DNA of 64,000 nucleotides from Squalus acanthias (Eukaryota): contig CM059430.1 of NCBI GenBank assembly GCA_030390025.1, forward strand, positions 61,628,001-61,692,000, read 5' to 3'. The notes beneath the pieces were generated by a model. The model searched no databases and was not told the origin of the DNA. It saw only the letters and a program-made list of their open reading frames with translations. The translations under genes and the position numbers were made by a program. Of this stretch, positions 8,001-59,029 are shown piece after piece; positions within the stretch are counted from its first letter, which is position 1; each line of letters starts with the position of its first letter.

Positions 8001-9845
8001 CCATACTAATTCTACTTCCTGCTCTTCTGAGCCAAGATCCTTCCTCACTATTGTCCTTATGTCATCCTTTATTATTAGGGCTACCCCCTCCTTTTGCATT
8101 TTGTCTGTCTTTTCGAAACGTCAAGTACCCTGGAATATTTAGTTCCCAACCTTGGTCAGCATGCAATAACGGCTTTCTAATGGCTATTAGATAAAACCTG
8201 TTTATCTTTATTTATGCCATTCATTCGTCTGTTTTGTTATGAATGCTTTCTGCATTCAGATAAAGCGCCTTTAATTTTAACGTTTTATTATTTTTTCCTG
8301 ATTTGACCTTATTCACTGATGCATTACTCCTGTCCCTTCCTGCCACACTCTGCTTATCATTACCCAAATCACAACACTGCTCTAAGGCCTTGACTTTTCT
8401 CTATAGATTTATAAATTTCCCCTCTCCTGCACACTCTCCACTTTTTAGGTTAAAGCTCTGTCTACAGCCCTAGTTATTCGATTCACCAGGAAACTGGTCC
8501 CAGCTGGTCTAAGTGGAGCCTGTCGCAACAGAACAGCACCCTCTTTCCCCAGTACTGCTGCCAATGCCCCTTGAATCATAACCCCTATCCCCCACACCTC
8601 ACTTTCAGCTATGCATTCAACTCTCATCTGTTTGACCCTATGCTAATTTGTGCTTTTCTCAGGTAGTAATCCAGAGATCATTACCTTTAAGATTCTGCAT
8701 ATTAAGTTCGACCCGAGCTCCTCAAACTCCCTCAGCAGAACCTCATTCCTAGTTCTACTTATGTCATTGGTTCCTACGTGGAGCACGAAAACTGGATCCT
8801 CCCCTCCCACTGCAAGTTCTTCTCCAGCTGCGTCGGGATACCCTTAACCCTGGTACTGGGCAGGCAGCACCACCTTCGGAACTCCTGGTCGTCGCCAAAG
8901 AGAACAGTATCTATCCCCCTGAATAAACTGTCCTCTACCAGGACCACATTCTATTTCACTCCCCTCACTTGAATGGCCTCCTGTACCACGGTACTGTTGT
9001 CCGTTTGCTTATCCACATTGCAGACTTTGCCTTCATCTGCACAGGCAGCAAGAACCTAGTACCTGTTGGATAACAGCGAATGCTGAGGTTCCTCCAGCAC
9101 TGCACCTGACTTGCCTGACTCACAGTCACAGCCTCCTGTCCATTAACACGAACCAGACCTGTGCAACTACCTAACCTAAGGGGTGTGACTGCCTCCTAGA
9201 TCAAAGTGTCCAGTTAACTCTCCCCTCCCTGAATCCCCGCAATGTCTGCACCTCGGACTCCAGCTTAGCAACTCTGAGCTGAAATTCCTCTAGATGCAGA
9301 CACTTACTGCAGATACGGTTGTCCAAGATCCTGATGTTCCCCACAAACTCCCACATGCTGCAGTTGCGACACATCTGCTGCCATCGCTATATAACCTCGT
9401 TTTATTTATTTATTTAATTAAAGTTTATGTAATTAATCAACGTAGCTTATATTCTTTATTTTTAACTAATTACTTGATCTAAATTAAGTTAGAGGTATAT
9501 TAAATTAAAGATTTACCTTACCCCGCCAACCCTCCCTCTGCTGTGACACCACTTTGCGATTTTTCTGCCGTGCTGCTCTCGGCCTCGCCGTTTTCTTAGA
9601 TATCAGATCTATTTGTTTACCTGAAGTATACTATTGTCTTCATACTTTGATAGATGTGAAATTAAGCAATTAACTATGATTCCTCGGCTCCCGCCACTCC
9701 TCACTCTATACGGACAATTATGTCATTTTTTTAGTTTTTCCCTCCGTTTGTCTGATATCAGCTGCTGCGCTCTGCCCCGCTCCTTTTAAATCACTGGTGC
9801 TCGGGATCCCGCTCTTTTTAATCAGCTGCTGCTCTCTGCCGTTGC
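5005..9845 (-). mobile_element. Near full-length decayed CR1 LINE, plus adjacent and nested 3' fragments (5005-5225, about 7281-7560)
   Basis: 5' UTR about 9400-9845; ORF1 CxxC…CxxC/leucine zipper (CRNCSMWE…CSKCLHLEEFQLRVAKLE) about 9240-9375; esterase region ending AVDRALT*; fragmented EN/RT ORFs; 3' tail near 5225. Confidence 0.88.
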
Positions 9846-10900: not shown

Positions 10901-11445
10901 CTTAATTTTACTCTAACATCTACAGTGATAAAAACGGTTCCGAACATTTCATAACCTGTTTTTTGGTCTAAAGAGTCCAGAGCTACAGTAATAGCCAGAG
11001 TTGATTTAGAAGCAATGCGTCTTGCTCCATCAATCTATAAGAAATTGAGGAGAGAAGTTGCTCAGTGGATGGAGGAAATCCAGCTAAGAGTTTCCTTATA
11101 TTTTTGGAAGATATTTGAAAAAGTTCTGCGCATGAGGCTTTTGAAGCAAATTCAGCCTCATGGCATTCGGGGAGAATTGGAAAGTGATAATTAAAGGCGC
11201 TGTCTGGGGAGCAGTAGATTTCTAGACAGAGCTCTACCTGGTCTATTTTAGGTTCAATGCTTTCTCGTCTATTGATGATCTATTTGGACTAGCCACTTCT
11301 AGTAATAGTCCTAGATGTACTGATGGCGTCAATACATAGATAGAAGAGATGTAGGTTAATAACACACCAAGAAATCTGGGTCATCGAAGAAATGCCCTTG
11401 AAAGATGTTCCCGGAAGTTCCACACATAATCTGTCCAAATCGTAC

Positions 11446-11742
11446 CTTGCTTAACGGTGTAGCTGACATTGGCGGGCACCAGAAGAGAGACATGAGATAC
11501 CAGACATGTATAAACAACTCCGCTCTGGGTAGGCTGTGCTTCTTCCAACGAGCTGGAAACCTCAAACAGTCCCTCCGCATTCCTGTTTTTCACAGTTGCT
11601 ATTCCGGTCAGATTTTCGACATCATCTCTTCGCCAGGAGATTTCTAAATGCTCCGGGTAAAAGGCACTCGTTTTACACTCGAGTTTTAGAGAAGTCGCTG
11701 AAATCCCTTCGACAAGAGCGATTTTCAGGGGAGTTGGGGGAA
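11446..11742 (-). CDS. Exon 3: Ig C1-set domain
   Basis: Acceptor ttttctttcctgttaaag| and donor G|gtacga; 297 nt, phase 1-1, open. Reads VPPTPLKI…LECKTSAFYPEHLEISW…GLFEVSSSL…YTCLVSHVSL…YTVKQ, with the C1 hallmarks C-x4-FYP, W and YTCxVxH. Confidence 0.92.
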
Positions 11743-13304
11743 CTTTAACAGGAAAGAAAAGTTTTTTTCAATTTAAAGGAACACATTCTCATTTGCCTAC
11801 TCTCGTTATGCTGATACAGTCCTACTGTCACAATAGTTATCCGCGCTGTCGTTTTTTTTAAACTTCCAGTTTGCATTTATTTTATAAATTGTTTTACCGC
11901 GCACAGCAACATGACGGGATGTATTGGAAACGGAACGCAAAGTGGGCAAACATGCAGGGAGGCAAACGTCACTGTTCTGAATGGAGTATCAGATCCTGGC
12001 GCGGAATTGTGGTTGGCAGCAGTGACCCCGAGTGAGGTTCCTGTCCGAATATATCGGAGAGAGCGCAACCCAGTCTGCACGAACAGTGGAATCGTTTCTC
12101 GTTATTCATTAATAATCTTTGGAGTATGAAACATTTTGTGTGTTTATTTAAAAATTGGTCGCTTTTTAGATATTTCGTAGATTGCAAATATATTTTACAT
12201 AAACGGTGAATATTGAGAAGAATAAATCTTACCAATATATCGAAATATCTCCGATGTCTGCACAGATTACAGGTAGGATGCTGTTATATCTATAGATTAA
12301 AATTCGTGCATTACAGTTGCTAACTCAGCATTTCAGTGTCTGTGTTGGAGATTTCAGATCGTGCAGCTTTCAATAAATGTACTTTCCCCAGAGCGCGAAC
12401 CGAGGGCTGGAATATTTTTCACGTCATGAAAGGGTTATATTGGTAATGATGTATATCTGTGTAGATCACAACATCCATACAGATGAGGGAAACCGAATAG
12501 GAAATCCTAACTCAGAGTGCATGTCTTATATAATTCCAGGGGTTTTGTCCTTCCCCAGGTCTATTCGGTCTGTTGAACACGTTTTACCTGAAGAAGATTC
12601 TGCTTATATCAGTCCTACAATCGTCTTTTACTAATGTGAACCTTTGTCCGCTAGAGCTACAGTCAGCTGGAAGTAGAGTCCCTTATTAGGTTTGCATTGT
12701 TTTGTCAGTTTATTACAAACAATCTCCTTAACATCTTTTCTTTAAATGTTTACTTTTCCGACTTTGTACTAATAGCAAACATTTAAATCAGGGGTATTAT
12801 TAACTTGAAAAATTATTTTAGCCTTTATTCCCAGCAGCACCGTGTTGACTGCCCAACCAAAGCTCAGAATTCCTCCATTCCTTTACCACTGATCTGTTTA
12901 GGTTTAATATTTAATGCAGTATAGTTTTCGTGGAGGAGGAGGAGGACGAAAGTGTTCTCTTAATCTGCTGCCGTAACCTCAGTCTGGGATTGGTAGAATG
13001 TTAATAGAAATCATGAATTACAAGTACGGGAGCCCTGGCGTTTATAACAAGTTCGGCGATAATCTGCCCGTACTTTACAGGTTGTGAGTGTATGAAAGAA
13101 AGTCCAATTGGCGTCAGACAGTGTTTTAAACAGGAGCACTGGGTTTCTGCACTCTCCTGCAAGCTCTAGGACTTGGGGTGGAATCTAGCATTGAGGGTAA
13201 GACCAACACTTCCCCTTTCAATGGGCTATAAGATTCCTTCGTGAAATGAGTTTGGCCGTCTCAAAAAAGTTCTCAATGGAAGCAAGTGCACAGCCTAAAC
13301 TGCG

Positions 13305-14052: not shown

Positions 14053-14119
14053 ACTATTGAGTTTTACATATATCGCACACTGCTGAGAATCTCCCATTAC
14101 CCGGCACAATGACACTTAC

Positions 14120-14425
14120 CGTACACAGTAAGCTGGGAGCCAGTTCCATCTCCAATAGATTTCTGATGATGTTTTACTTTACAGTAATACACTCCGGCGT
14201 CGGCGATACTCGCATTAAGGAGATCAAATGACCCACTTCCCTTTTTTACATTAAATTGCTTTCTGCTGTCTGGCTCCAGAAATGTCTCCTCGCCCCGTCT
14301 CCGCCAATAAACATCGGGGGCATCTTGAAATATGGGAAATGTGCAGAACATGGCAACATTTGTACTCCTAGCAACTTTAATAAATTTAGGGAATTGATCC
14401 ACTTTAATCGAAGTTCCTTCAGCGG
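14120..14425 (-). CDS. Exon 2: Ig V-set domain with germline-joined J-like G strand
   Basis: Acceptor ttttctgatag| at 14426, donor G|gtaagt at 14119; 306 nt, phase 1-1. Contains B-strand Cys (MFCTF), C-strand Trp (VYWRR), DAGVYYC and the J-like GDGTGSQLTVY. Confidence 0.93.
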
Positions 14426-14639
14426 CTATCAGAAAATAAACAAAAATGTTGACACAATAGTTTGCATACCTTAGAAAAAGAACAAATAAAATGACTTAGA
14501 AATAAAAAAACAAGAAAATTAACCACATTAGTAACACAATAAGAAAAACGGAAGAAAGAAATGTGCACAAAATATGAATTTCTTTTTTAACAATAGCTTT
14601 TTTTCGATAAGCATGGAGCGGTAAGATAAACGAACACAC

Positions 14640-28139: not shown

Positions 28140-29355
28140 AGTACTGCCAGCCTTTCTCGTACCTCCACTTTATCTAATTTTTATCTCATGCGGTATCCTG
28201 GCAACCTCCTCGTTTACCACAGCTTTGGCAAAGTTATCTTCCTTGGTAAACACCGATTTAAAGTACTCATTTAGTACCTAAGCCATACCTTCTGCCTCCA
28301 CCAATAGATCTCAACTTTGGTCCCTAATTGGCCCCATCGCTTCGCGGATAAACCTTTTACTGTTAATACACCTCGAGCAAACCTTTGGATTCCCGTTTAT
28401 GTTAGCCGCCGATCTATTCTCTTATGGTCTCTTTGCCCCTCTTATTTCCTCTTTCACTTCTCCTCTGTACATTTTATATTCAGCCTAATTCTCCCTTGTA
28501 TTATCAAGCTGACATCTGTCATACGCCCCCTTTTTCTGCTTCATCCGACTCTCTAACTCCTTTGTCATCCAGGGAGCTCTGGCTTCGGTTGCCCTCCCTT
28601 TCCCCCTTGTGGGAATGTACCTAAACTGTACCCGAACCATCTCTTCTTTAAAGGCCATCCATTGCTTTATTACATTTCTGCCTGCCGGTCTTTGACTCAA
28701 ATTTACCTGGGCCAGATCCATCCTCAATTCGCTGAAATCAGCCCTCCTCCAGTTAAATAGTTTCATTCTAGATTGCTCCTTGCCCTTCTCCATAACAATC
28801 TAAACCTTACGATACCATGCTCACTATTCTCGAGGTACTCCTCGACTGACATTCTCCACTTGACCCACTTCATTCCCCAGGACAAGATCCTCGCTGGGCT
28901 TGAAACAAACTGATCAAGAAAACTAGTGCTGTGGAGAAGGGTTTAAACTAATTCGGCAGCGGTTTGGGCACCAAGATGTAATTTTTAAAAGTACAGAGGA
29001 CTGGGAGAGACAGCTAGAATTAGAAATAATACAGAACTAAGTGGGATCATAGAAAATACAAAGAGGTCTAAGTTAGGTTTGTAATGTATGTGTGTAAATT
29101 CACGAAGTGTAGCTAATAAGGTTGGTGAACTACAGGCGCCAATAGCCACGTGGGAATATGAGGCAGTGGCGATAACTGAGACCTGGTTCAAAAGGGGTAT
29201 TCCAGGGTACAAGGTATTCAGGAAAGATAGGGAAGGAAAAAACAAGGATGGATAGCAGTTTTGATGAAGTAAAATATTACAGTGCTAGAAAAAGAAAATA
29301 CCCTTGAGGAGTCAAAGACAGAATTTATTTGGTTGGAGTTAAGAAACAATAAACG
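28140..29355. mobile_element. Two CR1 fragments in opposite orientation (28140-28910 minus; 28925-29355 plus)
   Basis: Minus piece: NWRRADFSELR…APWMTKE. Plus piece: ORF1 end TTTAAACTAA and EN start (ITETW). Confidence 0.75.
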
Positions 29356-33200: not shown

Positions 33201-34230
33201 TTGTCACCCTGTAGCCATGTTTCTGTAATGGCCGCAAGATCATACCCATATGTAATTATTTGTGCCATTAACTCGTCTATTTTGTTACGAAGTCTACGTG
33301 CATTCAGATAGAGAACTTTCAAATATGTTTTGTGACACTTAGTTCCTGCTTTTGCCCTTTTTATTACTTTACCTTTTACTTCATACCTTCTGCCCCTTCC
33401 TGACGCACTCTGGTTTTTAATTTCCCCACTGCTACCTAATCTATGATCTTCTCTGTTGTCATTTTTATTATTTGCTCTCTAGGAACCGCCCCCCCACTAG
33501 TTAATTTAAAGCCCTCTCTACAGCCCAAGTTATATGATCCGCCAGGACTCTAGTCCCTGCACTGGCCAAGTGAAGCCTGTCCCAACGGAACAGCTCCCTC
33601 CTGCCCCAGTACTGGTGCCAGTGTCCCAGGAAGCAAAACCCATTTCTCCCACACCAGTCTTTGAGCCACTCATTTAACTCTCTAATTTTATTTGTCCTAG
33701 CCAAATTCGCTCGTGGCTCAGGTAATAATCCAGAGATTATTACCCTTGAGGTTCTGTTTTTTAATTTGACCCCTAGCTGCTCATACTCCTTTAACAGAAC
33801 TGGCTTCCTTGTCCTATCTACGTCGTTTATACGAACATGGAACACGACAACTGGATCCACCCACGCCTACTGCAAGTTTCTTTCCAGCCCAGATGAGATG
33901 TCCTTAACCCTGGCACCGGGCAGGCAACACAGCCTACGGGACTCTCGCTCTCGGCTGCAGAGAACTCTATCTATCCCCCTAATAATACTATCCCCTACCA
34001 CTACAACATTTCTATTTACTCCCCCCTCTTGAATGGCCCCCCGTTTCACGTTGCTGTGGCCAGGTTGCTCATCCTCCCTGCAGTCCCTGCTCCTGTCCCC
34101 ACAGGGAGTAAGAACCTCGAACCTGTTGGACAAGAGCAAGGGCTGCGGCTCCTCCAACACTACCTCCTGGTTCCCCATACCTGCCTCACTCGTAGTCACA
34201 CCGTCCTGTTCATGACCATGGGCTACATCT
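30277..34230 (-). mobile_element. CR1 LINE: ORF1 esterase plus ORF2 with a few disablements
   Basis: GDSIIRG…CCLPGARV; EN (ITETW, GDFN, SDH); RT (QGSVLGP, FADD); tail reading (CATAAGAA)n on the plus strand. Confidence 0.93.
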
Positions 34231-38965: not shown

Positions 38966-41900
38966 GTGGGAAAAATTCAGTATCGCCCCGTTTGGGGCGC
39001 GATTATCGGCCGTGCACAAAGTTTAGCGCCTGGCGCTAATTATCGCCTCCGACTGCAAACTTCGCTTTTATCGCCCACGGAGTTGATTGGAGCGCTAAAT
39101 CGGGTGCTGCACACCTCTCTTAAGCACAAAGGCCGAGGAGCGAGGCACTAGCTCAGAGCGCGGGTGCAGTGCAGGTGCTGTCAGTTAGCGATGGAACACA
39201 GACACACTGGCGCCGGCCAGTTCTTGAAGGGGAGGGTCGATCTTGCTCTCCTGCCAAACCCTGCTCATTGGAGCCTTGAATCTCGGCCTGGAGAGACCTG
39301 TGCCTAAATCCTGCAGCCAAGGACTATAGAGAGGGCCAGGGACCGAGCACATCGCTTCAGCGAGCGGGCCTTGGAGGCTCTGGTTGGTGCGGTGGAGCGC
39401 AGAAGCTGAATACTGTACCCAGAGAGTGGCAGGAGGCCTTTGCCGCGCGATTACTGAAGAGTGTGGAGGGAGGTGACACAGAGCGTCTCCTCCAGAAGCA
39501 TGGTGCCCAGGACCCATATACAATGTAGAAAAAAGTTCAACCACCTCACTCGGGTCGTCAGGGTGAGTGGCTTTTTTTCAATACCTCTCCATCCCTCCAT
39601 TTCAAGCTCACTCTATGGCCAGATGGTCTTAAAACCCCAATGCCCAACACTCATCCAACACCTATGGCCCTCTCATGAAACACACACGCACATTCCACAC
39701 TTTGCATAGTGTAAGGGCTATTCACCTATGGGAGGCAAATCAGGCAAGACCATGGCTGCATACAGTAAGGGCTATTCACTTATGGGAGGCACATCAGTCA
39801 AGACCATGGCTGTATATTTACTCAGACGCCGTCCTTTTTCTTGCAGGCCAAGCTATCTCATAATAGGAGACGGCAGCAACGGACGGGTGGAGGGCGGCCT
39901 CAGCTGCAAACCCTCAGCAAGCTTGAGGAGCGTATCCAGAGGATTGTAGCAAGCCGGGTGATCGGTCCCGTCGCCACTGGAGAGGCCGACCCCGTTCTGG
40001 ACAGCAATGGTAAGGTCATTACCTTTTTGTTCTCTCTCCTTCAACTTGTCCCTCACAACACCAGCCTTTGACACTTTCAATCCAACTTACTAAATCGCTG
40101 CACTCATTCCTCCCTTACTGCCACCCTGTCCTCATGCTAAAGCCACTTTTGTACTTCCCTGCTTTCAGATGGTGATTCATCAGCTGAGGAGACGGGCCCC
40201 CAAGCTGCCAGTGGGAGTGAAGCTGCAGGCGAGGAGGAAGATGAAGCCGGAGCATCAGTTCCACCCTCTCCTGAGGAAGCCCATGCCCACACTGGGAACA
40301 CGCCTTCCCTGGAGGGGAGCAGGGTGGAAGGGTCTGATGAGGGTGAAGCTCCAGGACCCAGCGGGCTGCAGCAAAGCGATGGGGGTAGGGAAGCTCGGGG
40401 GCCTTCTTCCGGAGGGAGAGTATGCCAGCGAGTCCTAATGCAGTGGACGCAGAGGAGGAGCGGCTGATCGCTGAAATGAACACCCAGGCGGTGGACATGC
40501 ACACTGAGCTCATGGGTGCAGTGCGAAGGGTGCCCGAATGCATTGAATCACTGGCAAGGAGTGTGGAGCACTTCGCTGTAGCACAGGTGGATGCCATGCA
40601 AATGTTTAGTGCTGCAATTCAGTCACTGGCTGCCGTGACCCCATCTCTGACTGCTCTCATGCAGACTCAGATTGAGGCCACGCGAGCACTGACTGCTGCC
40701 ATCCTTGTTGGTTTGGACACATTTCCCTGGGGCTCTCACTGCGCCGCAGCAGGCCAGCAATCTGTGCTCCAGCAGATTGCTCCGGATGCTGAAGTGCTGC
40801 CCCGTGGGAGTGCCAGTTTGTCAGTCGAGCAGGGAGTGTCTGTCCTCTCTCAAGATGACAGCATTCCTGCTGCCACCACTGTCACTTCTCCACTGCACTT
40901 GCCACCGCCTGTAGGACAGACTGCTGCCGCCCATGCAGAGTTGGTGCAGTCTGCAGCCGGACCCTCCAGGCCCAGAGCTGGTCGAGGCTGTCCTTCAAGG
41001 GCATCTGCAGTCTCAGGTTCTGACAATCAGCAGCCTTCCAGCAGCCTTGCTGCAGCCACTGGGGTCTCATTACGGAGGAGCAGTAGGGTGGGAAGGGGGG
41101 AAGTGCAAAAGGGTAGGAGATCACCCTCGAAGGGCAAAAAGTAGGAAGTGTGACAAAATGTTGGTAATTTTTTTATTAAAGGCCAAGGTTCGTGGTCAAA
41201 CTCTTGTTTAGTGTTTTGGATATTATCTCCAGGTTGTGAGAACCAGTATGTTAATGACTTTGTTTTGTGTTTCTTTCTATTAGTTTGTCATGAGGAAATG
41301 ACACACACAGAATTTGTAAAATAAATAAGTTTTCGTATTCAAAATGTACATGTTTGGTCTTTGCAATCATTGCTGCCTTGGCCGGCTTAGGGGTTGCTGG
41401 TTGGTTTCATTCATGTTGTTCTCAATGGCAGAAGCCATTTCCTCAGCAGGGGCCTAGAAGCTGTTTGCTATCAGCTGTTGATGGACGGCCCTTCCAGTTT
41501 CTACATTGTGGGCCTCCTGCCCGCCTTGGTGCTGCTGATGATCATCCTCCTCCTCTTCCTCCTCCTCTTCCTCCTCCTCCTCTGGTGGTGCTCCAAGGCC
41601 TGGTGGTATTGGCTGGATCCTGAGGATTGCCAGCTTATGCAGCATGCAGCACACAACAATGAAGAGGGAGACTCGCTCAGGCGAGTACTGCAGGGCTCCT
41701 CCAGAATGGTCCAGACAGCGGAACCGTTGCTTGAGCACGCCGATTGTGTGCTCAACGATGTTCCTGGTAGCTAGATGGCTCTCGTTGTACCGCAGCTCAG
41801 CAGGGGTGTTGAGCGTATGGAGCAGTGTCATCAGCCAGGTGCACAGTGGATATCCGTTGTCCCCGAGAAACCAACCACCTGGGTGATGCGGTGCCTGGAA

Positions 41901-43107
41901 AAGTTCTGCCACAGTAGTCTGGCGCAGGATGTATGCATCGAGGCTGCTGCCAGGATAGCAGGCATTGACAGCGAGTATCAGCTGTCTGTGGTCACAGACC
42001 AACTGCACGTTTAAGGAATGGAACCCCTTTCGGTTGCGAAAATCCTCTGCATTCTCATGCTGAGCACGCAAAGCCACATGCATGCAGTCAATGGCGCCCT
42101 GCAGCATAGGGAAGCCCGCTATCCTCGCAAAGCCCATAGTGCGTTCATGCTGCTTGGCCGGGGTTATGGGGAAAGCGATGTACTTTCATCTCCTTTTATA
42201 GAGGGCATTTGTGAGCTGATGGATGCAGCAACGGACCACAAACTGGGAGATATTGGCGATGTCCCCAGTAGCTGACTGAAATGAGCTCGTGGCATAAATG
42301 TTGAGAGCCACTGTTATCTTCACTGCCACCGACAGAGACGTCCTGCTCCTCAGTTGAGGCTGCAGATCTGGCTGCAGCAGTTGGCAGAGATCAGTGACCA
42401 CCTTCGCAAACACTGCTCCTCAGACATATTAATGTATGAGAATTGTTGGTGAAATACCCTGGGAGGATAAGGTCTCCTGTACAGAGGCCTGTTGGCCCTC
42501 CTCCGTCTGGCCATGATTGCCACTCTCTCTCTGCATCTCTGTGGCCTCCGATTTTGCTGGCGCAGGATGATGCCCCCAATTAGTGCAGCCCCCAAGTCTC
42601 TTGGCAATCAAAGTAATGAAGGTTAAAAATCAAAGTACCTGCAAATTTATGCTCAGTAGCCAAAACTACTTCACACAGCTTTGACTCAATGCACAAGTCT
42701 CTCTTTCTCTCTCTCAAAATCTCTCTCTCTCTCTCAGAACGAGTGGTGCAAAAATGTCTACCACAGAGAAAGCCAGGAAGAGGCCCCCTTTAAATAGCGC
42801 CCCCCCCCAGCCCCACAGCCACTGGGAAGCGTTCCAGTCTACCGTCGTTGGTTGCGCCAGGCGGAAAGGAGGGGGGCACCACTCAATTTCCGTTCGGCGG
42901 CACCCCAAGGGCGTTGCACGTTCGAATAACATCAAGATCTGCGTGCACAGGAGATCGGGGCGGTATTGTGTAGCGCTGCCGCAAAATGTCTGGTCAATTT
43001 CGTGAGGGGCGCAGATATCGCTGCGCCCGGGCGCTAATTAATTTGTGCCCCATTAACGCCCTCTTAATGCACTAATGGGAGGCGCAAACCAACTGAATTT
43101 CCCCCCC
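38966..43107. mobile_element. Full-length PIF/Harbinger transposon, copy 1 (disabled)
   Basis: 15-bp TIRs GTGGGAAAAATTCAG / CTGAATTTCCCCCCC; TSD TAG; convergent Myb-like (+) and transposase (-) genes, both with frameshifts or stops. Confidence 0.93.
41454..42600 (-). pseudogene. Disrupted Harbinger transposase
   Basis: GAIDCMH, GDNGYP and RNIVEHTIGVLKQRF are retained; N-terminal part broken by a roughly 20-nt deletion near 42400 and a stop near 42186. Confidence 0.9.
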
Positions 43108-45330: not shown

Positions 45331-45694
45331 GGGGGAAAAATTCAGTCGCGCCCCGTTTGGGGCGCAAATATCGTCCGGGCGCAAAAATTGGCGCCTGGCG
45401 CTAATTATCGCCACTGACTGGAAACTTCACTTTTAACGCCCCGGGAGGTGATTGGAGCGCTAAATCAAGCGCTGCACACCTGTCTTAAGGCGCAAAGGCC
45501 GAGGAGTGAGGCGCTAACTCAGAGCGCGAGCGCAGCGCAGGTGCTGCCAGTTAGCGAGGGAACACAGACACACTGGCGCTGGCCAATTCTTAAAGCGGGG
45601 GGGGGGGGGCGATCTTGCTCCCCAGCCACACCCTGCTCATTGCAGCCATGAATCTCGGCCTGGAGAGACCTGTGAATCCATTTTCCAGCCAAAG

Positions 45695-47537
45695 ATGGAG
45701 AGGGTGAGAGAACGAGCTGAGCGCTTCACCGAGCGGGCCTTGGATGCTCTGGTTGCCGCGGTGGAGCGCCGAAGACCAATACTGTACCCAGAGAGTGGCA
45801 GGAGGCCTTTGCCGCGCGACTACAGAAGAGTGTGGAGGGAGGTGGCTCAGCGCGTCTCCTCCAGGAGCATGGTGCCCAAGACCCATGTCCAATGCCGGAA
45901 AAAGTTCAACGACCTCACTCGGGTCATCAGGGTGAGTGGCTTTTTTGCAATACCTCTCCATCCCTCCATCTCAACCTCACTCTATGGCCAGAGGGTCTTA
46001 AAACACAAATAACAACACTCATCCAACACCTATGGCCCTTTCATGAAGCACACACACACATTCCATACTTTCCATACAGTAAGGGCTATTCAACTATGGG
46101 AGGCACATCAGGCAAGACCATGGCTGTATACAGTAAGGGCTATTCACCTATGGGAGGCAAATCAGGCAAGACCATGGCTGTATACAGTAAGGGCTATTCA
46201 CCTATGGGAGGCACATCAGGCAAGACCATGGCTGTATATTTACTCAGACGCCGTCCTTTTTCTTGCAGGCCAAGCTGGCGCATAATAGGAGACAGCAGCA
46301 ATGGACGGGTGGAGGGCGGCCTCAGCTGCAACCCCTCAGCAATCTTGAGGAGCGCGTCCACAGGATTGTGGCAAGCTGGGTGATCGGTCCCGTCGCCACT
46401 GGAGATGTCGACCCCATTCTGGACAGCAATGGTAAGGTCATCACCTTTTTGTCCTCTGTCCTTCCACTTGTCCCTCACAACACCAGCCTTTGACACTTTC
46501 AATCCAACTTACTAACTCGCTGCACTTATTCCTCACTTACTGCCACCCTGTCCTCACGCTAAAGCCACACTTGTACCTCCCTGCTTTCAGATGGTGATTC
46601 ACCAGCTGAGGAGACGGGCCCTGAAGCTGCCAGTGGGAGAGAAGCTGCAGCCGAGGAGGAAGAGGAAGCCGGAGCATCAGTGCCACCCTCTCCCGAGGAA
46701 GCCCATGCCGACACTGGGAACATGCCTTCCCTGGAGGGGAGCAGGGGGGAAGGGTCTGATGAGGGTGAAGCTCCAGGACCCAGCGGGCTGCAGCAAAGCG
46801 ATGGGGGTAGGGAAGCTCGGGGGCCTTCTCCCCGGATGGAGAGTATGCCAGCGAGTCCTGCTGCACTGGACGCAGAGGAGTAGTGGCTGATCGCGGAAAT
46901 GAACACCCAGGCGGTGGGCATGCACACTGAGCTCATGGCTGCAGTGGGTAGGGTGCCCGAATGCATTGAAGCACTGGCAAGGAGTGTGGAGCACTTCGCT
47001 GCAGCGCAGGCGGATGCAACACTGAAGCTCAGTGCTGCATTTCAATCTCAGAATGCTCTCATGCAGACTCAGATTGAGGTCACGCAAGCACTGTCTGCTG
47101 CCATCCTCGCTGGTTCGTTCACATTTCCCCGGGGCTCTCACCGCGCCGCAGCAGGCCAGCAATCTTTGCTCCAGCAGATTGCTCCGGAAGCTGAGGTGCT
47201 GCCCCGTGGGAGTGCCAGTGTGCCGGTCGAGCAGGGAGTTGCTGTCCTCGCTCAAGATGACAGCATTCCTGCTGCCACCACTGTCACTTCTCCACTGCAG
47301 TTGCCACCGCTTGTAGGACAGACTGCTGCCGCCCATGCAGAGTTGGTGCAGTCTGCAGCCGGGCCCTCCAGGCCCAGAACTGGTCGAGGCCGTCCCTCAA
47401 GGGCATCTGCATTGTCGGGGCCTGACAGTCAGCAGCCTTCCAGCAGCCCTGCTGCAGCCACTGAGGTCACATTGCTGAGGAGCAGTAGGGTAAGAAGGGG
47501 GGAAGGGCGCACGGGAAGGAGTTCACCCTCGATGTAG
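45695..47537 (+). pseudogene. Three-exon Myb/SANT (trihelix, NAIF1-like) Harbinger helper gene with one nonsense codon
   Basis: Exons 45695-45931 (RFTERALDALV…VWREVA…QCRKKFNDL, donor gtgagt), 46269-46431 (AHNRR…TGGG, donor gtaagg) and 46591-47537. TAG at 46881-46883 where copy 1 has GAG. Confidence 0.85.
46075..46237 (+). repeat. 54-bp minisatellite (3 units; 2 units in copy 1 at about 39706-39815)
   Basis: Unit tacagtaagggctattcacctatgggaggcacatcaggcaagaccatggctgta, inside intron 1 of the Myb gene. Confidence 0.92.
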
Positions 47538-47848: not shown

Positions 47849-47947
47849 CTAGAAGCGGCTTGCTATCAGCCGCTGACGGACGGCCCTTGCAGTTTCACCA
47901 TTGTGGGCCGCCCTCACGCCTTGGTGCTGCTGCTGATCATCCTCCTC

Positions 47948-47978
<31 letters not shown>

Positions 47979-49009
47979 GGTGGTGCTCCAAGGCCTGGTG
48001 GCATTGGCTGGGTCCTGAGGATTGCCATGTTATGCAGCATGCAGCACACAACTACGATGTTGGAAACTCGCTCAGGCGAGTACTGCAGGGCTCCTCCAGA
48101 ATGGTCGAGACAGCGGAACCGTTGCTTGAGCACGCCGATTGTGTGCTCCACGATGTTCCTGGTAGCTTGATGGCTCTCGTTGTACCGCAGCTCAGCAGGG
48201 GTGCTGGGCGTACGGAGCGGTGTCATCAGCCAGGTGCTCAGTGGATACCCCTTGTCCCCGAGAAGCCAACCAACTGGCTGATGCGGTGCCTCGAAAAGTT
48301 CTGCCACAGTAGTCTGGCGCAGGATGAAAGCATCGTGGCAGCTGCCAGGATAGTGGGCATTGACAGCGAGTATCAGCTGTCTGTGGTCACAGTCCAACTG
48401 AACATTCAAGGAATGGAACCCCTTTCTGTTCCGGAAATCCTCGGCATTCTCATGCGGAGCACGCAAAGCCACATGCATGCAGTCAATGGCGCCCTGCACC
48501 ATGGGGAAGCCCGCTATCCTCGCAAAGCCCAGAGCGCGTTCTTGCTGCTTGTCTGGGGTCATGGGGAAAGAGATGAACTCTCGTCTCCTTTTAAACAGGG
48601 CATTTGTGACCTTCCTGATGCAGCAATGCACCGCGAACTGGGAGATATTGGCGATGTCCCCAACAGCAGATTGAAATGAGCCAGTAGCATAAAAGTTCAG
48701 AGCCACTGTTACCTTCACTGCCACCGACAGAGACGTCCTGGACCTCAGTTGAGGCTGCAGATCTGGCTGCAGCAGGTGGCAGAGCTCAGTGACCACCTCC
48801 TTGCTGAAGCGCAGCCTTCGCAGACACTGCTCATCAGACATATGAATGTAGGAGAGCTGTTCACGATATATCCTGGGAGGGTAAGCTCTCCTGTACAGAC
48901 GCCTGTTGGCCCTCCTCCGTCTGGCCATCATTGCCACTCTCTCTCTGCGTCTCTGTCTCCTCCGATTCAGCTGGCGCAGGATGACGCCCCCCATCAGTGC
49001 AGCCCCCAT
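47849..49009 (-). CDS. Intact Harbinger (HARBI1-like) DDE transposase, 386 aa
   Basis: Uninterrupted ORF from ATG 49009; HTH region, GAIDCMH, NRKGFHSLNVQ, YPGSCHDAFIL, LLGDKGYP, RNIVEHTIGVLKQRFRCL, CCMLHN and a C-terminal poly-Glu tract. Confidence 0.95.
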
Positions 49010-50160
49010 ATCTCTTAGCAAGCAAAGTTATGAAGGCCAGAAACCAAAGTACCAGCGAAGTTAGGATGAGTAGCCAAAACTACCTCACACAGCCTTGACT
49101 CAATGCAGAAGTCTCTCTTTCTCTCTCTCCGAATCTCTCTCTCTCTCTCAGAACGAGTGGTGCAAAAATGTCAACCACAGAGAAAGACAGGAATAGGCCC
49201 CCTTTAAATAGCGCCCCCCCAGCCCAACAGCGATTGTTAGCGTTCCACTCTTCCGGTTGTTGGATGCGCCAGGCGGTAAGGATGGGGGCGCCACTGAAAT
49301 TCTGCTCCGGGGCGCCACAAGGGCATTGCACTGTCGTATGACATCACAATCTGCGCGCGCAGGGGATCGCGGCGATAAAGTTTAGCGCCGCCACAAAATG
49401 TCTAGTTACGTTCGCGAGCGGCGCAAACATCGCTGTGCCCGGGCGCTAGCTGCTTTGCGCCCCATTAGTGCCCTCTTAAGGCGCTAACGGGAGGCGCAAC
49501 CAACTGAATTTTCCCCCCTATGTTTCTACGATTCTATGATTACTATTAGATGAAGAAATCGAATGGAAAAAATAACGTATTTACACATAAACAGTTGCTG
49601 AAAATTTACTTCAAGTTTTCGGACTGTGTCACAGCGTAACAGTTGGTATTGCAATTATGAGCCTTCTTGGAAATGCCTATAGTCATCCAACCCAGAGAGT
49701 TCGAAACACCATTCTGTTCACCTTATCACATTTAAATTCAGAGTAAAACTGCGCATTCAAACGCCACCAATGGGAATACGAGACAATCAGTTCCGAGTTC
49801 GCTTTGAGTCTGAAGGACAAATTTATCGGTCCAAAATCATGTCCAAATTATTTTGTTTATTGGCACCATGGTAACACCAAACATACACACAAAATAGTTT
49901 CGTCAAATCTGAAGTGATTTAATCTTCTCCCCAGATACAACAGCCAAGTGGGGCGCTATTTAAATCGAATTCTATTAATTTCCTCCCTAATGGTTTCTCA
50001 ATTTTCCCTTTGGGACGAGAACCACAGAGCACTGGATTTAGTCTGTGGTGTGCGATCTGCTGTTGCGGTCACTTTGATTTGCCAGCAACCGAGGGAGTGA
50101 AATTCAACCTTAGTGGGGGCGCAGCATGGGTGGTGGTGGCTCGCCCACCAATTATACTCT

Positions 50161-53072: not shown

Positions 53073-54659
53073 AAAGACTGGTGCGACGACAATGACCAGG
53101 AGATGCAGGAGGTAATAAGCCACAAACACATGGCATTCCTGATCTGGAAACAGCAACAGAACTCGAGAACAAGAAAGCAGCTGTACAAACGCCTGAAGGC
53201 CGAGGTCCAACGAAAAACTTGCGACCTAAAGAACAGATGGTGGAGGTGGAGAAAGCGCAGGAGATTCAGCAGCTAGCTGACAACCACGACGTGCGTGGAT
53301 TCTTTAGCACAGTCAAGACCACCTACGGCCCAAGCACTTAAGCTCCTACCCCACTGTGGGCCAAGAACGGAGAGGTACTCATCAAGGACAGAGAGGCAGT
53401 CAGTGCCCGCTGGAAGGAGCACTTCGAAGATCTCCTTAACCGAGACTCTGTCTTCGATGCGAGCGTCCTCAACACCATCCTGCAGCATGCTACCTGCCAC
53501 CACCTCAGCACAAACCCAGCCCGGCATGAGGTTGAAAAGGCCATCCAACAACTGAAGAACAACAAGGCCTCAGGAGCAGATGGAATCCCTGGCTTGCGCT
53601 GAAACATGGTGGCGAAGCACTATTGGTGCATATACATGAACTAATTTCACTTATTTGGAAGGAGGAGAGCATGCCAGGGGATCTCCGAGATGCTGTAATC
53701 GTGACGATCTTCAAGAAAGTTGACAAGTTCAATTGCGGTAAATACGTGAGGAGTCTCCCTGCTGTCTGTCACAGGGAAAGTCATCACAAGAATCCTCCTC
53801 AATCACCTTCACCAAGTGACTAAATAGCTCCTCTCAGAGTCGCAATGCGGATTCTACCCACTAAGGGGCACAATGGACATGATCTTCACCGCACGGCAAC
53901 TACAAGAGAAATGCAGGGAACAGCACTAACCGCTGTACATGGCCTTTTTGACCTCAAAAAGACCTTCAACATTGTCAACCGTGAGGGATTATGGAGTGTC
54001 CTCCTCAAATTCGGTTGCCTTCAAAAGTTGGTCACCATCCTCCACCTGCTTCACGATGACATGCAAGCCGTGATCCTGACCAACAGATCCACCACAGGTC
54101 CAATTCATGTATGGACCGGGTTCGAGCAAGGCTGTGTCATCACATCAACGCTCTTCTCGATCTTCCTGGCTGCAATGCTCCATCTCACCCTCAGTAATCT
54201 CCCCGCTGGAGTGGAGCTAATCTACAGAACAAACAGGAAACTGTTCAACCTCCATCACCTCTAGTCCAGATCCAAGTTCGTCCCCTCCTCTGTCATCGAA
54301 TTACAGTATGCAGACAACGCTTGCGTCTGCGCACACACTGAGGATGAACTCCAAACCCTAATCAACAGCTTCACCGAAGCGTACGAGACCATGGGCCTTA
54401 TACTAAACATCCGTAAGACAAAGGTCCTCTACCAACCTGCCCCCGCCACACAGTACTGCTCCCCGATTATCAAAATCCATGACGAGGCCTTGGACAACGT
54501 GAACCACTTTCCATACCTCGCGAGCCTACTGTCAACAAGTGTAGAAGTCAATGACGAAGTCCAACACTGCCTTCAGTGTGCCAGTGCAGCCTTTGGTCGC
54601 CTGAGGAAGAGAGTGTTTGAAGACCAGACCTCAAATCCTGCAGCAAGCTCATGGTCTAC

Positions 54660-55261
54660 CAGGAGATGGCCTACCAGGGGAAGGCACTAGCAGCCAGGTT
54701 CATGGGACCATGGCTGGCTCTGCTGCACAGCAGGGCGGGAAAAAGAGTGGCAGGGCTATAGTGATAGGGGACTCAATTGTAAGGGGAATAGACAGGAGTT
54801 TCTGTGGCCGCAACCGAGATTCCAGGATGGTATGTTGCCTCCCTGGTGCAAGGGTCAAGGATGTCTCTGAGCGGCTGCAGAACATTCTGAAGACGGAGGG
54901 TGAACAGCCAGCTGTCGTGGTGCATGTAGGTACCAACGATATAGGTAAAAAGCGGGAAGAGGTCCTACAAGCAGAATTTAGGGAGCTAGGAGCTAAATTA
55001 AAAAGTAGGACCTCTAAGGTAGTAATCTCTGGATTGCTACCAGGGCCACGTGCTAATCAGAATAGAGAGAACAGGATAGTGAGATTGAATACGTGGCTTG
55101 AGCAGTGGTGCAGGAGGGAGGGATTGAAATTCCTGAGGCATTGGAACCAGTTCTGGGGGAAGTGGGACCTGTACAAAAGGGACGGTCTGCACTTGGGCAG
55201 GACTGGAACCGATGTCCTCGGGGTAATATTTGCTAAAGCAGTTCGGGAGGATTTAAACTAA
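54660..55261 (+). CDS. CR1 ORF1 C-terminal SGNH-esterase domain (5' truncated)
   Basis: GDSIVRG, LPGA, HVGTND and DGLH blocks are intact. Confidence 0.88.
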
Positions 55262-55308
55262 TATGGCAGGGGAATGGGAACCTATGTAGCGAAACAGGGG
55301 GAAGTAAT

Positions 55309-58245
55309 ATGCAGTCAGAAACAAATGTTAGAAGGGTGAGAAACAATAGGGGAAGGCCGAGTAAACAAAGGCAAGAAACACAAAGGGCCATACTAAATCA
55401 TAAGTCTAAAAGGACAAAGGATGTTAATAAAACAAGCCTAAAGGCTCTGTGTCTTAATGCAAGGAGTATCCGTAATAAGGTGGATGAATTGACTGTGCAA
55501 ATAGATGTTAACGGATACGATGTGATTGGGATTACAGAGACGTGGCTCCAGAACAATCAAGGCTGGGAACTGAACATCCAGGGGTATTCAACATTCAGAA
55601 AGGATAGAATAAAAGGAAAAGGGGGTGGGGTAGCATTGCTGGTTAAAGAGGAGATTAATGCAATAGCTAGGAAGGACATCAGCTTGGAGGATGTGGAATC
55701 AATATGGGTTGAGCTGCAGAACACCAAAGGGCAGAAAACGTTAGTGGGAGTTGTTTACAGACCTCCAAACAGCAGTAGTGAGGTGGGGGAGGGTATGAAA
55801 CAGGAAATCAGAGGTGCGTGCAAAAAAGGCACGGCAGTTATCATGGGTGACTTTAATATGCATATAGATTGGGCTACTCAAACTGGAAGCAATACGGTGG
55901 AGGAGGATTTCCTGGAGTGTTTAAGGGATGGTTTCCTAAACCAATATGTTGAGGAACCAACTCGAGGGGAGGCCATCCTGGACTGGGTGTTGTGTAATGA
56001 GGAAGGACTAATCAGCAATCTTGTGGTACGAGGCCCCCTGGGGAAGAGTGACCATAGTATGGTGGAGTTCTACATTAGGATGGAGAAGGAAACAGTTAAG
56101 TCAGAGACCATGGTCCAGAACTTAAATAAGGGCAACTTTGAGGGTATGAGGCGTGAATTGGCGAGGTTAAATTGGCAAGCAATATTTAAGGGGCTATCAG
56201 TGGAAGGGCAATGGCAGACATTTAGAGATCGCATGGATGAACTACAACAATTGTACATCCCGGTCTGGCGTAAAAATAAAAAAGGGAAGGTGGCTCAACC
56301 ATGGCTAACAAGGGAAATCAGGGATAGTATTAAAACCAAGGAAGTTGCATACAAATAGGCCAGAAGTAGCAGCAAACCCGGGGACTGGGAGAACTTCAAA
56401 ACTCAGCAGAGGAGGACGAAGGGTTTGATTAGGGCAGGGAAAATAAAATATGAAAGGAAGCTTGCAGAGAACATTAAAATGGACAGCAAAAGCTTCTATA
56501 AATATGTAAAAAGAAAGAGGTTAGTAAAAACAAACGTAGGTCCCCTGCAGTCGGAAACAGGGGAAGTCGTAATGGGGAACAAGGAAATGACAGATCAATT
56601 GAACAAGTACTTTGGTTCGGTGTTTACTGTGGAGGACACACACAACCTGCCGGAAATAAAAGGGGTCAGAGGATCTGGTAAGAGGGAGGAGCTGAGGGAA
56701 ATCCTTATTAGTCGGGAAAAGGTATTGGGAAAATTGATGGGACTGAAGGCTGAAAAATCCCCGGGGCCTGATGGTCTGCATCCCAGAGTACTTAAGGAGG
56801 TGGCCTTGGAAATAGTGGATGCATTGACGATCATTTTCCAACATTCCTTAGACTCTGGATCAGTTCCGATGGAGTGGAGGGTGGCCAATGTAACCCCTCT
56901 TTTTAAAAAAGGATGGAGGGAGAAAGCAGGGAATTATAGACCGGTCAGCCTGACATCGGTTGTGGGTAAAATGATGGAAGCAATTATTAAAGATGTCATA
57001 ACAGACCATTTGGAAAGTGGCGACATGATAGGTCCAAGTCAGCATGGATTTGTGAAAGGGAAATCATGCTTGACAAATCTTCTGGAATTTTTTGAGGATG
57101 TTTCCAATAGGGTGGACAGGGGGGAACCAGTAGATGTGGTGTATTTGGACTTTCAGAAGGCCTTCGACAAGGTCCCACACAAGAGATTGGTGAGCAAAGT
57201 TAAAGCACATGGGATTGGGGGTAATGTGTTGGCGTGGATTGAGAACTGGTTGGCACACAGGAAACAAAGAGTAGGAGTAAATGGGTACTTTTCAGAATGG
57301 CAGGCAGTGACCAGCGGGGTACCGCAGGGTTCGGTGCTGGGACCCCAGCTGTTTACATTATATATTAATGATTTGGACGAAGGGATTAAAAGTAATATCT
57401 CCAAATTTGCGGATGACACTAAATTGGGAGGCAGTGTGAACAATGAGGAGGATGCTAGGAGGCTACAGAGTGACCTGGACAGGTTGGGTGAATGGGCAAA
57501 TGTATGGCAGATGAAGTACAATGTGGATAAATGTGAGGTTATCCACTTTGGTGGTAAAAATAGAGAGGCGGACTATTACCTGAATGGTGGCAGATTAGGG
57601 AAAGGGGAGGTGCAACGAGACCTGGGCATCATGGTACATCAGTCATTGAAGGTGGGAATGCAAGTGCAGCAGGCAGTCAAGAAAGCAAACGGAATGATGG
57701 CCTTCATAGTAAGGGGATTTGAGTACAGGAGTAGGGAGGTGATGCTGCAGTTGTACAGGGCCTTGGTGAGACCACACCTGGAGTATTGTGCGCAGTTTTG
57801 GTCTCCTAACTTAAGGAAGGACATTCTTGCTATTGAGGGAGTGCAGCGAAGGTTCACTAGATTGATTCCTGGGATGGCCGGACTGACATATCAAGAAAGA
57901 TTGGGTCAACTGAACTTGTATCCTCTGGAGTTCAGAAGAATGAGGGGGGATCTTATAGAGACATTTAAAATCCTGACTGGTTTAGACAAATTAGATGCGG
58001 GCAGAATGTTCCCAATGGTAGGGAAAACTAGAACCAGGGGTCACAGTCTAAGGATTAAGGGGAAGCCATTTAGGACTGAGCTGAGGAGGAACTTCTTCAC
58101 CCAGAGAGTGGTGAATCTATGGAATTCTCTTCCACAGAAGGTTGTTGAGGCCAGTTCGCTAAATATATTCAAAAGGGAGTTAGATATAACACTCACAACT
58201 AGGGGGATCAAGGGGTATGGCGAGAAAGCAGGAATGGGGTACTGA
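55309..58245 (+). pseudogene. CR1 ORF2 (APE endonuclease plus reverse transcriptase) with one in-frame TAG
   Basis: ORFs 55309-56358 and 56425-58245 share a frame and are separated only by TAG at 56356-56358; ITETW, GDFN, SDH, QGSVLGP and FADD motifs. Confidence 0.95.
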
Positions 58246-59029
58246 GGTAGCATGTTCAGCCATGAACGCATTGAATGGCGGTGCAGGCTCGAAGGACCGA
58301 ATGGTCTACTCCTGTACCTAGTTTCTATGTTTTCTATGTTTTCTATGTCTACAGAGCAGTAGTGATACCCGCCCTTCTGTATGCTTCAGAGACATGGTCC
58401 ATGTAAAGGAGGCACCTCAAAGCACTGGAGAGGTACCACCAATGCTGTCCCCGTGAGACCCTGCAAATCCATTAGCAGGATAGGCACACCAACGTCAATG
58501 TTCTCGCTCAGGCCAACATCCCCAGCATCGAAGCTTTGTCCACGCTCGATCAGCTCCAATGGAAGGGCCACATCATTTGTATGCCCGATATGAGACTCCC
58601 AAAACAAGCACTCCACTCCGACCTCCGACACAGCAAGAGAGCCCCAGGTGTGCAGAGGAAACGCTTGAAGGACATCCTCAAAGCCTCCTTGAAAAAGTGC
58701 AACATCCCTCCAACATCTGTGAATCCCTGGCCCAAGACCACACAAAGTGGAGGAAAAGCATCTGGGAAGTCGCCCAACACCTCGAGTCTCTTCGCCGGGA
58801 GCAAGCGGAAGCCAAGCGCAAACAGCGGAAGGAGCGCACATCAATCCAAGCACCCCACCCCCCTGCACCTTCAACCACTGTCTGTCCCACCTGTGACAGA
58901 GACTGTAGGTCCTGCATTGAACTCATCAGTCACCTGAGAACTCAATTTTAGTGTGGAAGCAAGTCATCCTCGCTTCCGCAGGACTGCCTAAGAAGAAGAA
59001 GAAGACAAGAAGAATGTATACCATTAGCA

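Follow-up and report, generated by a model that had tools for sequence, protein, structure and literature searches.

A slippery heptamer kept at the ORF1/ORF2 junction of esterase-ORF1 CR1 LINEs suggests ORF2 expression by programmed −1 ribosomal frameshifting

We analyzed the junction between the two open reading frames (ORF1 and ORF2) of a CR1 long interspersed nuclear element (LINE) within a 64,000-nt stretch of Squalus acanthias DNA (GenBank assembly GCA_030390025.1, contig CM059430.1, positions 61,628,001 to 61,692,000; hereafter the window, with positions counted from its first letter), and found that ORF1 ends on a canonical −1 frameshift heptamer directly followed by its stop codon, with ORF2 in the −1 frame. 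Drawing additionally on other copies in the window, published consensus sequences and distant ORF1 homologues, we consider it likely that programmed −1 ribosomal frameshifting is the means by which ORF2 is expressed in CR1 LINEs with an esterase-type ORF1, a route that would yield a fusion of esterase, endonuclease (EN) and reverse transcriptase (RT). Such a gag-pol-style fusion had been proposed from the sequence of the window (hereafter the original prediction); of that proposal, the site is borne out below together with its phase and nucleotide-level conservation, while the slip itself and the fusion protein are what we infer from them.

In the copy carrying this junction (hereafter the 55-kb copy, with all features on the plus strand), the 3′ end of ORF1 reads GAG GAT TTA AAC TAA, with the last four of these codons at 55250-55261. 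The slippery heptamer U_UUA_AAC (TTTAAAC, 55252-55258) lies in the X_XXY_YYZ phase of ORF1, where it codes the final Leu-Asn, and abuts the ORF1 stop TAA (55259-55261), in agreement with the original prediction. The −1 frame is open from stop to stop across 55237-56358 and contains both ATG 55309-55311 and the endonuclease, which upholds its assignment as the ORF2 frame; from the heptamer to the start of the endonuclease it forms a linker of 61 codons without a stop (55252-55434). The first ATG past the ORF1 stop (55263-55265) is in the +1 frame and opens a 9-codon ORF only, not ORF2, and the first in the ORF2 frame is that at 55309-55311, 47 nt past the stop and with A at −3. Both marks of a −1 frameshift site—an in-phase X_XXY_YYZ heptamer and a −1 frame open into the downstream ORF—are therefore present in this copy. 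TTTAAAC is common as a word, occurring 18 times in the window on both strands together, so that the non-random aspect of the heptamer is its position. Across its 1168 codons the 55-kb copy has only two canonical heptamers in phase, one of them being the ORF1 end; TTA accounts for 13 of its 103 Leu codons, and the T_TTA_AAY spelling is found at none of its 10 other Leu-Asn pairs.

Published vertebrate CR1-group consensi were taken from Supplementary Table 2 of PMC13343379, using the first 400 nt of each cell (papers given by PMC number are represented throughout by parts of their text or supplements). Searching these with TTTAAACTA returned 23 matches, 17 of which were judged by reading the rows to be ORF1/ORF2 junctions (16 in rows labelled CR1 and one in a row labelled Crack), with six elsewhere. 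The taxa, as read from the row labels, are alligator, crocodile, bullfrog, coelacanth, bowfin, a deep-sea teleost, chimaera, stingray, sawfish, catshark and dogfish. A search with 12 synonymous spellings of Leu-Asn-stop (CTT AAC TAA, forms with AAT for Asn, and TGA stops lay outside it) gave 30 matches, none of them at a junction. Free variation of the Leu-Asn codons, which the original prediction had named as counting against frameshifting, is thus not what we observe: 17 junctions spelled TTTAAAC plus TAR vs. 0 of 30 synonymous matches indicates that the heptamer is kept as nucleotides, beyond any constraint on Leu-Asn. The stop following the heptamer is TAG in 11 of these junctions and TAA in six. 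By eye, the −1 frame is free of stops up to the endonuclease start in ScyCan_CR1-1a and in AmiCal_CR1-1, the latter without an ATG; the frame was read only in these two, several of the other rows having dropped bases or an early end. The junction motif was absent from the portions covered of the supplements of PMC4992247, PMC4120745, PMC8665684 and PMC11303007.

Among more distant relatives, a homologue search over 1.84 billion representatives yielded 2863 matches, and our analyses use the best 150. In 62 of these best 150 of 2863 the C-terminal residue is Asn, preceded by Leu in 42, Gly in 10, Lys in three, Glu in two, Ser in two and three singletons. For tripeptide counts we kept 102 homologues, dropping 45 of the 150 that lacked a D-x-x-H motif and three with tails shorter than 23 residues. 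A tripeptide compatible with a strict set of slippery heptamers was present at +23 to +30 in 61 of the 102, vs. 175 of 1720 null windows (10%), the types being U_UUA_AAC (33), A_AAA_AAC (13), G_GGA_AAC (12) and G_GGU_UUU (3), with corresponding ORF1 end dipeptides LN, KN, GN and GF; with the full X_XXY_YYZ set the counts were 75 of 102 homologues vs. 447 of 1771 null windows. These four types are among the shiftiest sites on mammalian ribosomes according to a frameshifting review (PMC5009743), which also has G_GA accepted as a first triplet, in which case the two Glu-Asn ends would be covered as well. Immediately before the dipeptide stands a residue whose codon can provide the X base in 41 of 42 LN, 10 of 10 GN and 13 of 13 KN ends, compared with about 80% for the same dipeptides elsewhere, and Gln precedes GN nine times and LN never. 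In a quick tree, used solely to view groups, neighbours alternate between types (e.g., SGN beside SKN, QGN beside FLN); such swapping of Leu, Gly and Lys among clades is expected of a slippery site and not of a protein constraint. In one homologue, P0149, the protein passes from the end of the esterase into the endonuclease without a Met, where in its sisters KN is shortly followed by a stop; another, P0029, has FKL at the site. Taken together, these protein data indicate that distant homologues show the pattern with other slippery heptamers. Matches in the ESM Atlas were GDSL clusters only, mostly chordate; among viral contigs there were just three weak matches, none of them CR1, and no CR1-type junction was found among 8 metagenome-scan loci or 26 genome-scan loci.

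The same data bear on whether the junction could be conserved for protein reasons, with Leu-Asn capping the last esterase helix and the codon choice being compositional or inherited. An AlphaFold model does end the last helix (H153-171) at Leu171, and in 31 vertebrate-type proteins, a set chosen mostly by clade and ending, L171 and N172 show invariance of at least 90%. However, the absence from the junctions of all 12 synonymous spellings searched already weakens this account, Gly or Lys replaces Leu in other clades, and all seven ZfL2-type homologues finish the same esterase fold without such a dipeptide, leaving it, in our view, very improbable.

The window holds three further junctions, all of which are present where the original prediction had placed them. 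The first, TTTAAAT TAA, lies on the minus strand at 33501-33510 (heptamer 33510-33504) in a copy whose ORF1 protein is 53% identical to that of the 55-kb copy; it has a −1-frame ATG 48 nt from the heptamer start, before the endonuclease, and, as had been claimed, one indel separates the heptamer from an endonuclease in the −1 frame. The second, TTTAACC TAA with one change, is also on the minus strand (8445-8454, heptamer 8454-8448), its −1 frame running to the endonuclease with one stop and no in-frame ATG. The third, TTTAAAC TAA on the plus strand (28942-28951, heptamer 28942-28948), belongs to a short decayed fragment with no in-frame ATG before the endonuclease, in which an indel is needed to join the −1 frame. 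The pattern T_TTA_A(A/C)Y followed by TAA is thus kept at 4 of 4 window junctions from at least three diverged lineages, with one mutated. A −1 phase of ORF2, expected to be consistent, was found in the 55-kb and 8.4-kb copies and in the two consensi read by eye; the 33.5-kb and 28.9-kb copies each need an indel. An in-frame ATG before the endonuclease occurs in two of the four copies, at offsets of 57 (55-kb) and 48 (33.5-kb), and in neither of the other two; the downstream ORF2 ATG appears not to be conserved among the window copies. The 28.9-kb fragment (28700-29240) starts only about 20-25 nt before its heptamer and abuts an apparent CR1 endonuclease piece on the opposite strand, and is possibly an inverted 5′ end.

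To describe variation among sister copies, we aligned the contigs of three runs (923, 13 and 105 contigs) to 55120-55450 at 80% likeness; a fourth run, X21, gave 4 reads only and was uninformative. Considering variants and indels at a share of at least 5%, and among 40 of 54 variant rows, 23 fell at 55153-55237, none at 55238-55284 and 17 at 55285-55404, leaving a stretch of 47 nt around the heptamer with no variant among these rows, although some of the other 14 could lie within it. Under a uniform model the probability of such a gap, tested post hoc on these 40 of 54 rows, is about 0.001. The sole indels among these rows are a compensated +1/−1 pair in ORF1, with none in the linker, and third codon positions account for 4 of 17 linker rows vs. 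13 of 23 in ORF1. Read depth at the junction holds the top two of 28 bins in run X6 and not in X7 or X19, to which we give little weight. None of the runs listed as carrying the sequence was an RNA run, a result without bearing on expression. An apparent invariance reaching beyond the heptamer would also suit a junction acting as a nucleic-acid element in cis apart from decoding, whether for RNA packaging by the ORF1 protein (ORF1p), as an internal promoter, or through polymerase slippage producing −1 transcripts, as would a linker free of frame-changing indels among these rows and the 10-nt spacing of a G-tract kept in shark and crocodilian consensi (see below). The ORF1 phase of the heptamer, its position at the stop and the covariation of XXX with the first codon are nonetheless specific to decoding, and the homopolymer runs are just three long, such that we assign this alternative only a slight chance.

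Several points weigh against frameshifting. A folded 3′ stimulator was not supported: when 40-90 nt were folded with and without G-quadruplex energy (pseudoknots being outside the model), no stable 3′ hairpin or G-quadruplex rose above shuffled controls in any of the four window copies, with z scores from −0.6 to +1.8 and G4Hunter at most 1.24. The 17 consensus junctions were retrieved by motif search in 400-nt cells and hence come without a full denominator, and 41 of the 102 homologues, among them the nearest one, P0001 with its E-L-N end, have no tripeptide of the strict set. The GN, KN and GF classes are known from protein only, and the homologues are related, so their counts are not independent. 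The linker variants are not biased toward third positions (4 of 17). Finally, the 55-kb and 33.5-kb copies each have a −1-frame ATG upstream of the endonuclease, that at 55309 being without a variant among the rows considered, and TAATG with its ATG in the ORF2 frame, the SART1 arrangement, is found in 3 of the 17 consensi (ScyCan_CR1-1a, SquAca_CR1-17a and SquAca_CR1-6c).

These last observations, together with the A at −3 of ATG 55309, favor a separate ORF2 protein (ORF2p) made by termination and reinitiation, either L1-like (from ATG 55309 or without an AUG) or through a SART1-like UAAUG, with the heptamer, stop and G-tract serving as an element that tethers or pauses the ribosome. For L1 and SART1, reinitiation is the accepted mechanism (PMC2881922, PMC3894237). 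Yet it offers no reason for the conserved letters to vary precisely within the X_XXY_YYZ types; TAATG is missing from 14 of the 17 consensi and from all four window copies; the next ATG past the stop of the 55-kb copy is out of frame; and neither the 8.4-kb copy nor P0149 has an ATG before the endonuclease. On balance we regard reinitiation as unlikely to be the general route and programmed frameshifting as the better account, and the two could coexist in subfamilies with UAAUG.

What is conserved downstream of the heptamer is the adjoining stop and a G-tract. In the 55-kb copy the G-rich tract spans 55265-55278, with GG beginning 6 nt and GGGG 10 nt past the heptamer, matching the G-runs that the original prediction had placed from about 6 nt. 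A run of at least four G within 15 nt of the stop was seen by eye in 13 of the 17 consensi, and the run starts exactly 10 nt past the heptamer in AllMis_CR1-1b, AllMis_CR1-6a, CroPor_CR1-3a, PriPec_CR1-7 and ScyCan_CR1-1a as well as in the 55-kb copy. PMC5009743 describes a minority class of 3′ stimulators, 12-15 nt away from the slip site, that may be linear and act with trans-acting factors, and has G-quadruplexes stimulating frameshifting in synthetic constructs only. Speculatively, the tract is a candidate linear stimulator, or it may code a Gly-Asp-Gly motif (Gly-Asp/Asn-Gly) of the trans-frame linker; either would imply a function upstream of ATG 55309.

Under the proposed mechanism, most ribosomes would read …Asp-Leu-Asn and terminate at the adjoining stop, releasing ORF1p, and a minority would slip back one base on U_UUA_AAC and continue …D-L-N-L-I-W-Q-G… through the 61-codon linker into the endonuclease and then the reverse transcriptase. 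The product would be an esterase–EN–RT (ORF1–ORF2) fusion made at a fixed low ratio, as for gag-pol. A pseudoknot would presumably not be the cause of the pause, which would instead be imposed by the neighbouring stop codon, by the G-rich tract 10 nt downstream, or by both.

This arrangement resembles known gag-pol-type −1 frameshift systems in its in-phase X_XXY_YYZ at the end of the first ORF, its polymerase in the −1 frame and its use of the same four heptamer types, and differs from them in being a non-LTR (long terminal repeat) element with an SGNH esterase upstream and no predicted hairpin, and in that its frameshift is a predicted one. For the Dictyostelium non-LTR elements TRE5-A and TRE3-A, a −1 frameshift is stated as required for ORF2 (PMC5911963); like CR1 these are APE-type LINEs, but they belong to another lineage and another host kingdom, and are compared here by a one-line statement and not by sequence. 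Penelope-like elements (PLE) have a frameshift and pseudoknot after ORF1 (PMC8557442), and Drosophila HeT-A has a gag frameshift (PMC5009743); like the shift proposed for CR1, both occur outside the LTR elements, but PLE form a different retroelement class, and in HeT-A the shift lies inside a gag-only gene. L1 reinitiation and the SART1 UAAUG (PMC2881922, PMC3894237) share with CR1 a bicistronic LINE RNA and an ORF2 output coupled to ORF1 translation, but yield a separate ORF2p; ORF2 of L1 is said not to need the AUG (PMC5009743). Published esterase-ORF1 vertebrate CR1 elements (PMC13343379, PMC4120745, PMC3905857) have the same APE–RT ORF2 and a junction like that of the shark consensi, and in the portions covered their ORF1p and ORF2p are treated as separate products, unlike the fusion proposed here.

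Among the papers listed by the full-text literature searches, whose coverage does not extend to Haas 1997, Kajikawa 1997 or Kapitonov and Jurka 2003, none reports a frameshift at the CR1 junction. The word "frameshift" does not occur in the main-text portions covered of PMC3905857, PMC8665684, PMC4120745, PMC13343379, PMC3894237 and PMC2881922, nor does "CR1" in the first 300,000 of the 449,034 characters of the frameshifting review PMC5009743. Comparative support for a recoding signal in CR1 LINEs is strong, the site being unusually well conserved. The mechanism is of a known kind; for the main vertebrate LINE clade, no account of it turned up in the literature searched. LINE ORF2 translation has been called an open question (PMC3894237), accepted LINE models yield a free ORF2p, and in most vertebrates the dominant retrotransposons belong to the CR1 group, whose elements make up 22-34% of shark and ray genomes (PMC13343379). 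If the proposal is correct, the CR1 enzyme would be an esterase–EN–RT fusion of about 1300 residues (the 314-residue homologue P0001 plus 995 −1-frame codons), annotations that begin ORF2 at its first ATG would be in error, and what counts as an "intact" copy would need redefining. The junction would also count as an ancient, naturally occurring −1 frameshift signal of animal genomes that may operate without a folded stimulator.

The 55-kb copy itself is a 5′-truncated CR1 LINE (54660-58346, plus strand) with the truncation inside ORF1, flanked by a 6-nt target-site duplication GTCTAC (54654-54659 and 58347-58352). What remains of ORF1 (54660-55261) encodes a linker and an SGNH/GDSL esterase (Pfam PF13472, E 1.1e-13), and a profile built from 31 ORF1 homologues matches PDB 4c1b, a solved retrotransposon ORF1 esterase, with E 4e-42. 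ORF2 comprises an APE endonuclease region (55435-56355; PF03372, E 1.1e-14), an in-frame stop that marks the copy as decayed (56356-56358), and a reverse transcriptase region with its stop (56359-58245; PF00078, E 1.6e-34), and the 3′ tail consists of three 9-nt tandem repeats without poly(A) (58322-58348), the final 2 nt of which overlap the target-site duplication. A 3′ tail of short tandem repeats without poly(A) and a short target-site duplication are features of CR1 LINEs. The copy thus has the features of an esterase-ORF1 CR1, namely an SGNH/GDSL ORF1, an APE endonuclease followed by RT, a tandem-repeat tail and a short duplication, and by eye its junction resembles rows labelled CR1 in PMC13343379, including shark consensi. 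It is nested in an older RTE-like LINE, so labelled from flanking ORFs, which lies at 53824-54659 and resumes at 58347-58950 (plus strand) past the duplicated hexamer.

Other esterase LINE loci showed different junctions. In six distant loci (L003:1999-2004, L004:1894-1899, L006:1128-1133, L007:1825-1830, L008:1300-1305 and L009:1642-1647) ORF1 ends in TGA followed by C or T, the triplet after TGA being CTG in L003 and CTC, CCT, CCT, CCA and CTA in the group of L004, L006, L007, L008 and L009. UGA-C is a leaky stop context. In L006, L007 and L008 esterase and endonuclease are in frame with each other, and in L006 and L007 no Met precedes the endonuclease, which suggests that loci of this type could reach the same fusion by a second route, stop-codon readthrough. 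A broader generalization remains tentative and, on our assessment, rather doubtful: that esterase LINEs as a group make a gag-pol-like polyprotein, CR1 and its relatives via −1 frameshifting on interchangeable heptamers, stimulated by a linear G-motif at a fixed 10-nt spacing that recruits a trans-acting protein rather than forming a structure, and L2-like relatives via readthrough of an in-frame UGA-C. On that view the enzyme would bring along a lipid-binding esterase domain of its own. In L005:951-2640, a single frame holds the esterase, a long Pro/Ser linker and the endonuclease, interrupted once, by a TAG with GGT and ATG behind it. In L012:1501-2846 the endonuclease lies in the −1 frame with an overlap; this esterase and APE endonuclease LINE layout occurs in a contig of a bacterial metagenome-assembled genome (MAG) labelled Sedimenticola, and is probably animal host DNA in that assembly. 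L036, a bacterial-MAG contig that is cut short, may be similar.

Elsewhere in the window, a DDE transposase occupies 47849-49027 (minus strand; PF13359, E 4e-40, in a 392-codon open frame) and another 41454-42185 (minus strand), of a family that we take to be a Harbinger/PIF-type DNA transposon; ORFs near 45518-46012 and 46884-47537 neighbour the transposase, and at least two copies of the arrangement are present. Reading of ORFs at 11381-11767 and 14097-14495 (both minus strand) shows frames resembling immunoglobulin V- and C1-type exons, as of a host immune-receptor gene. At 46100-46250 (plus strand), within an ORF at 45721-46383, there is a short tandem repeat of coding-like appearance with a unit of about 60 nt.

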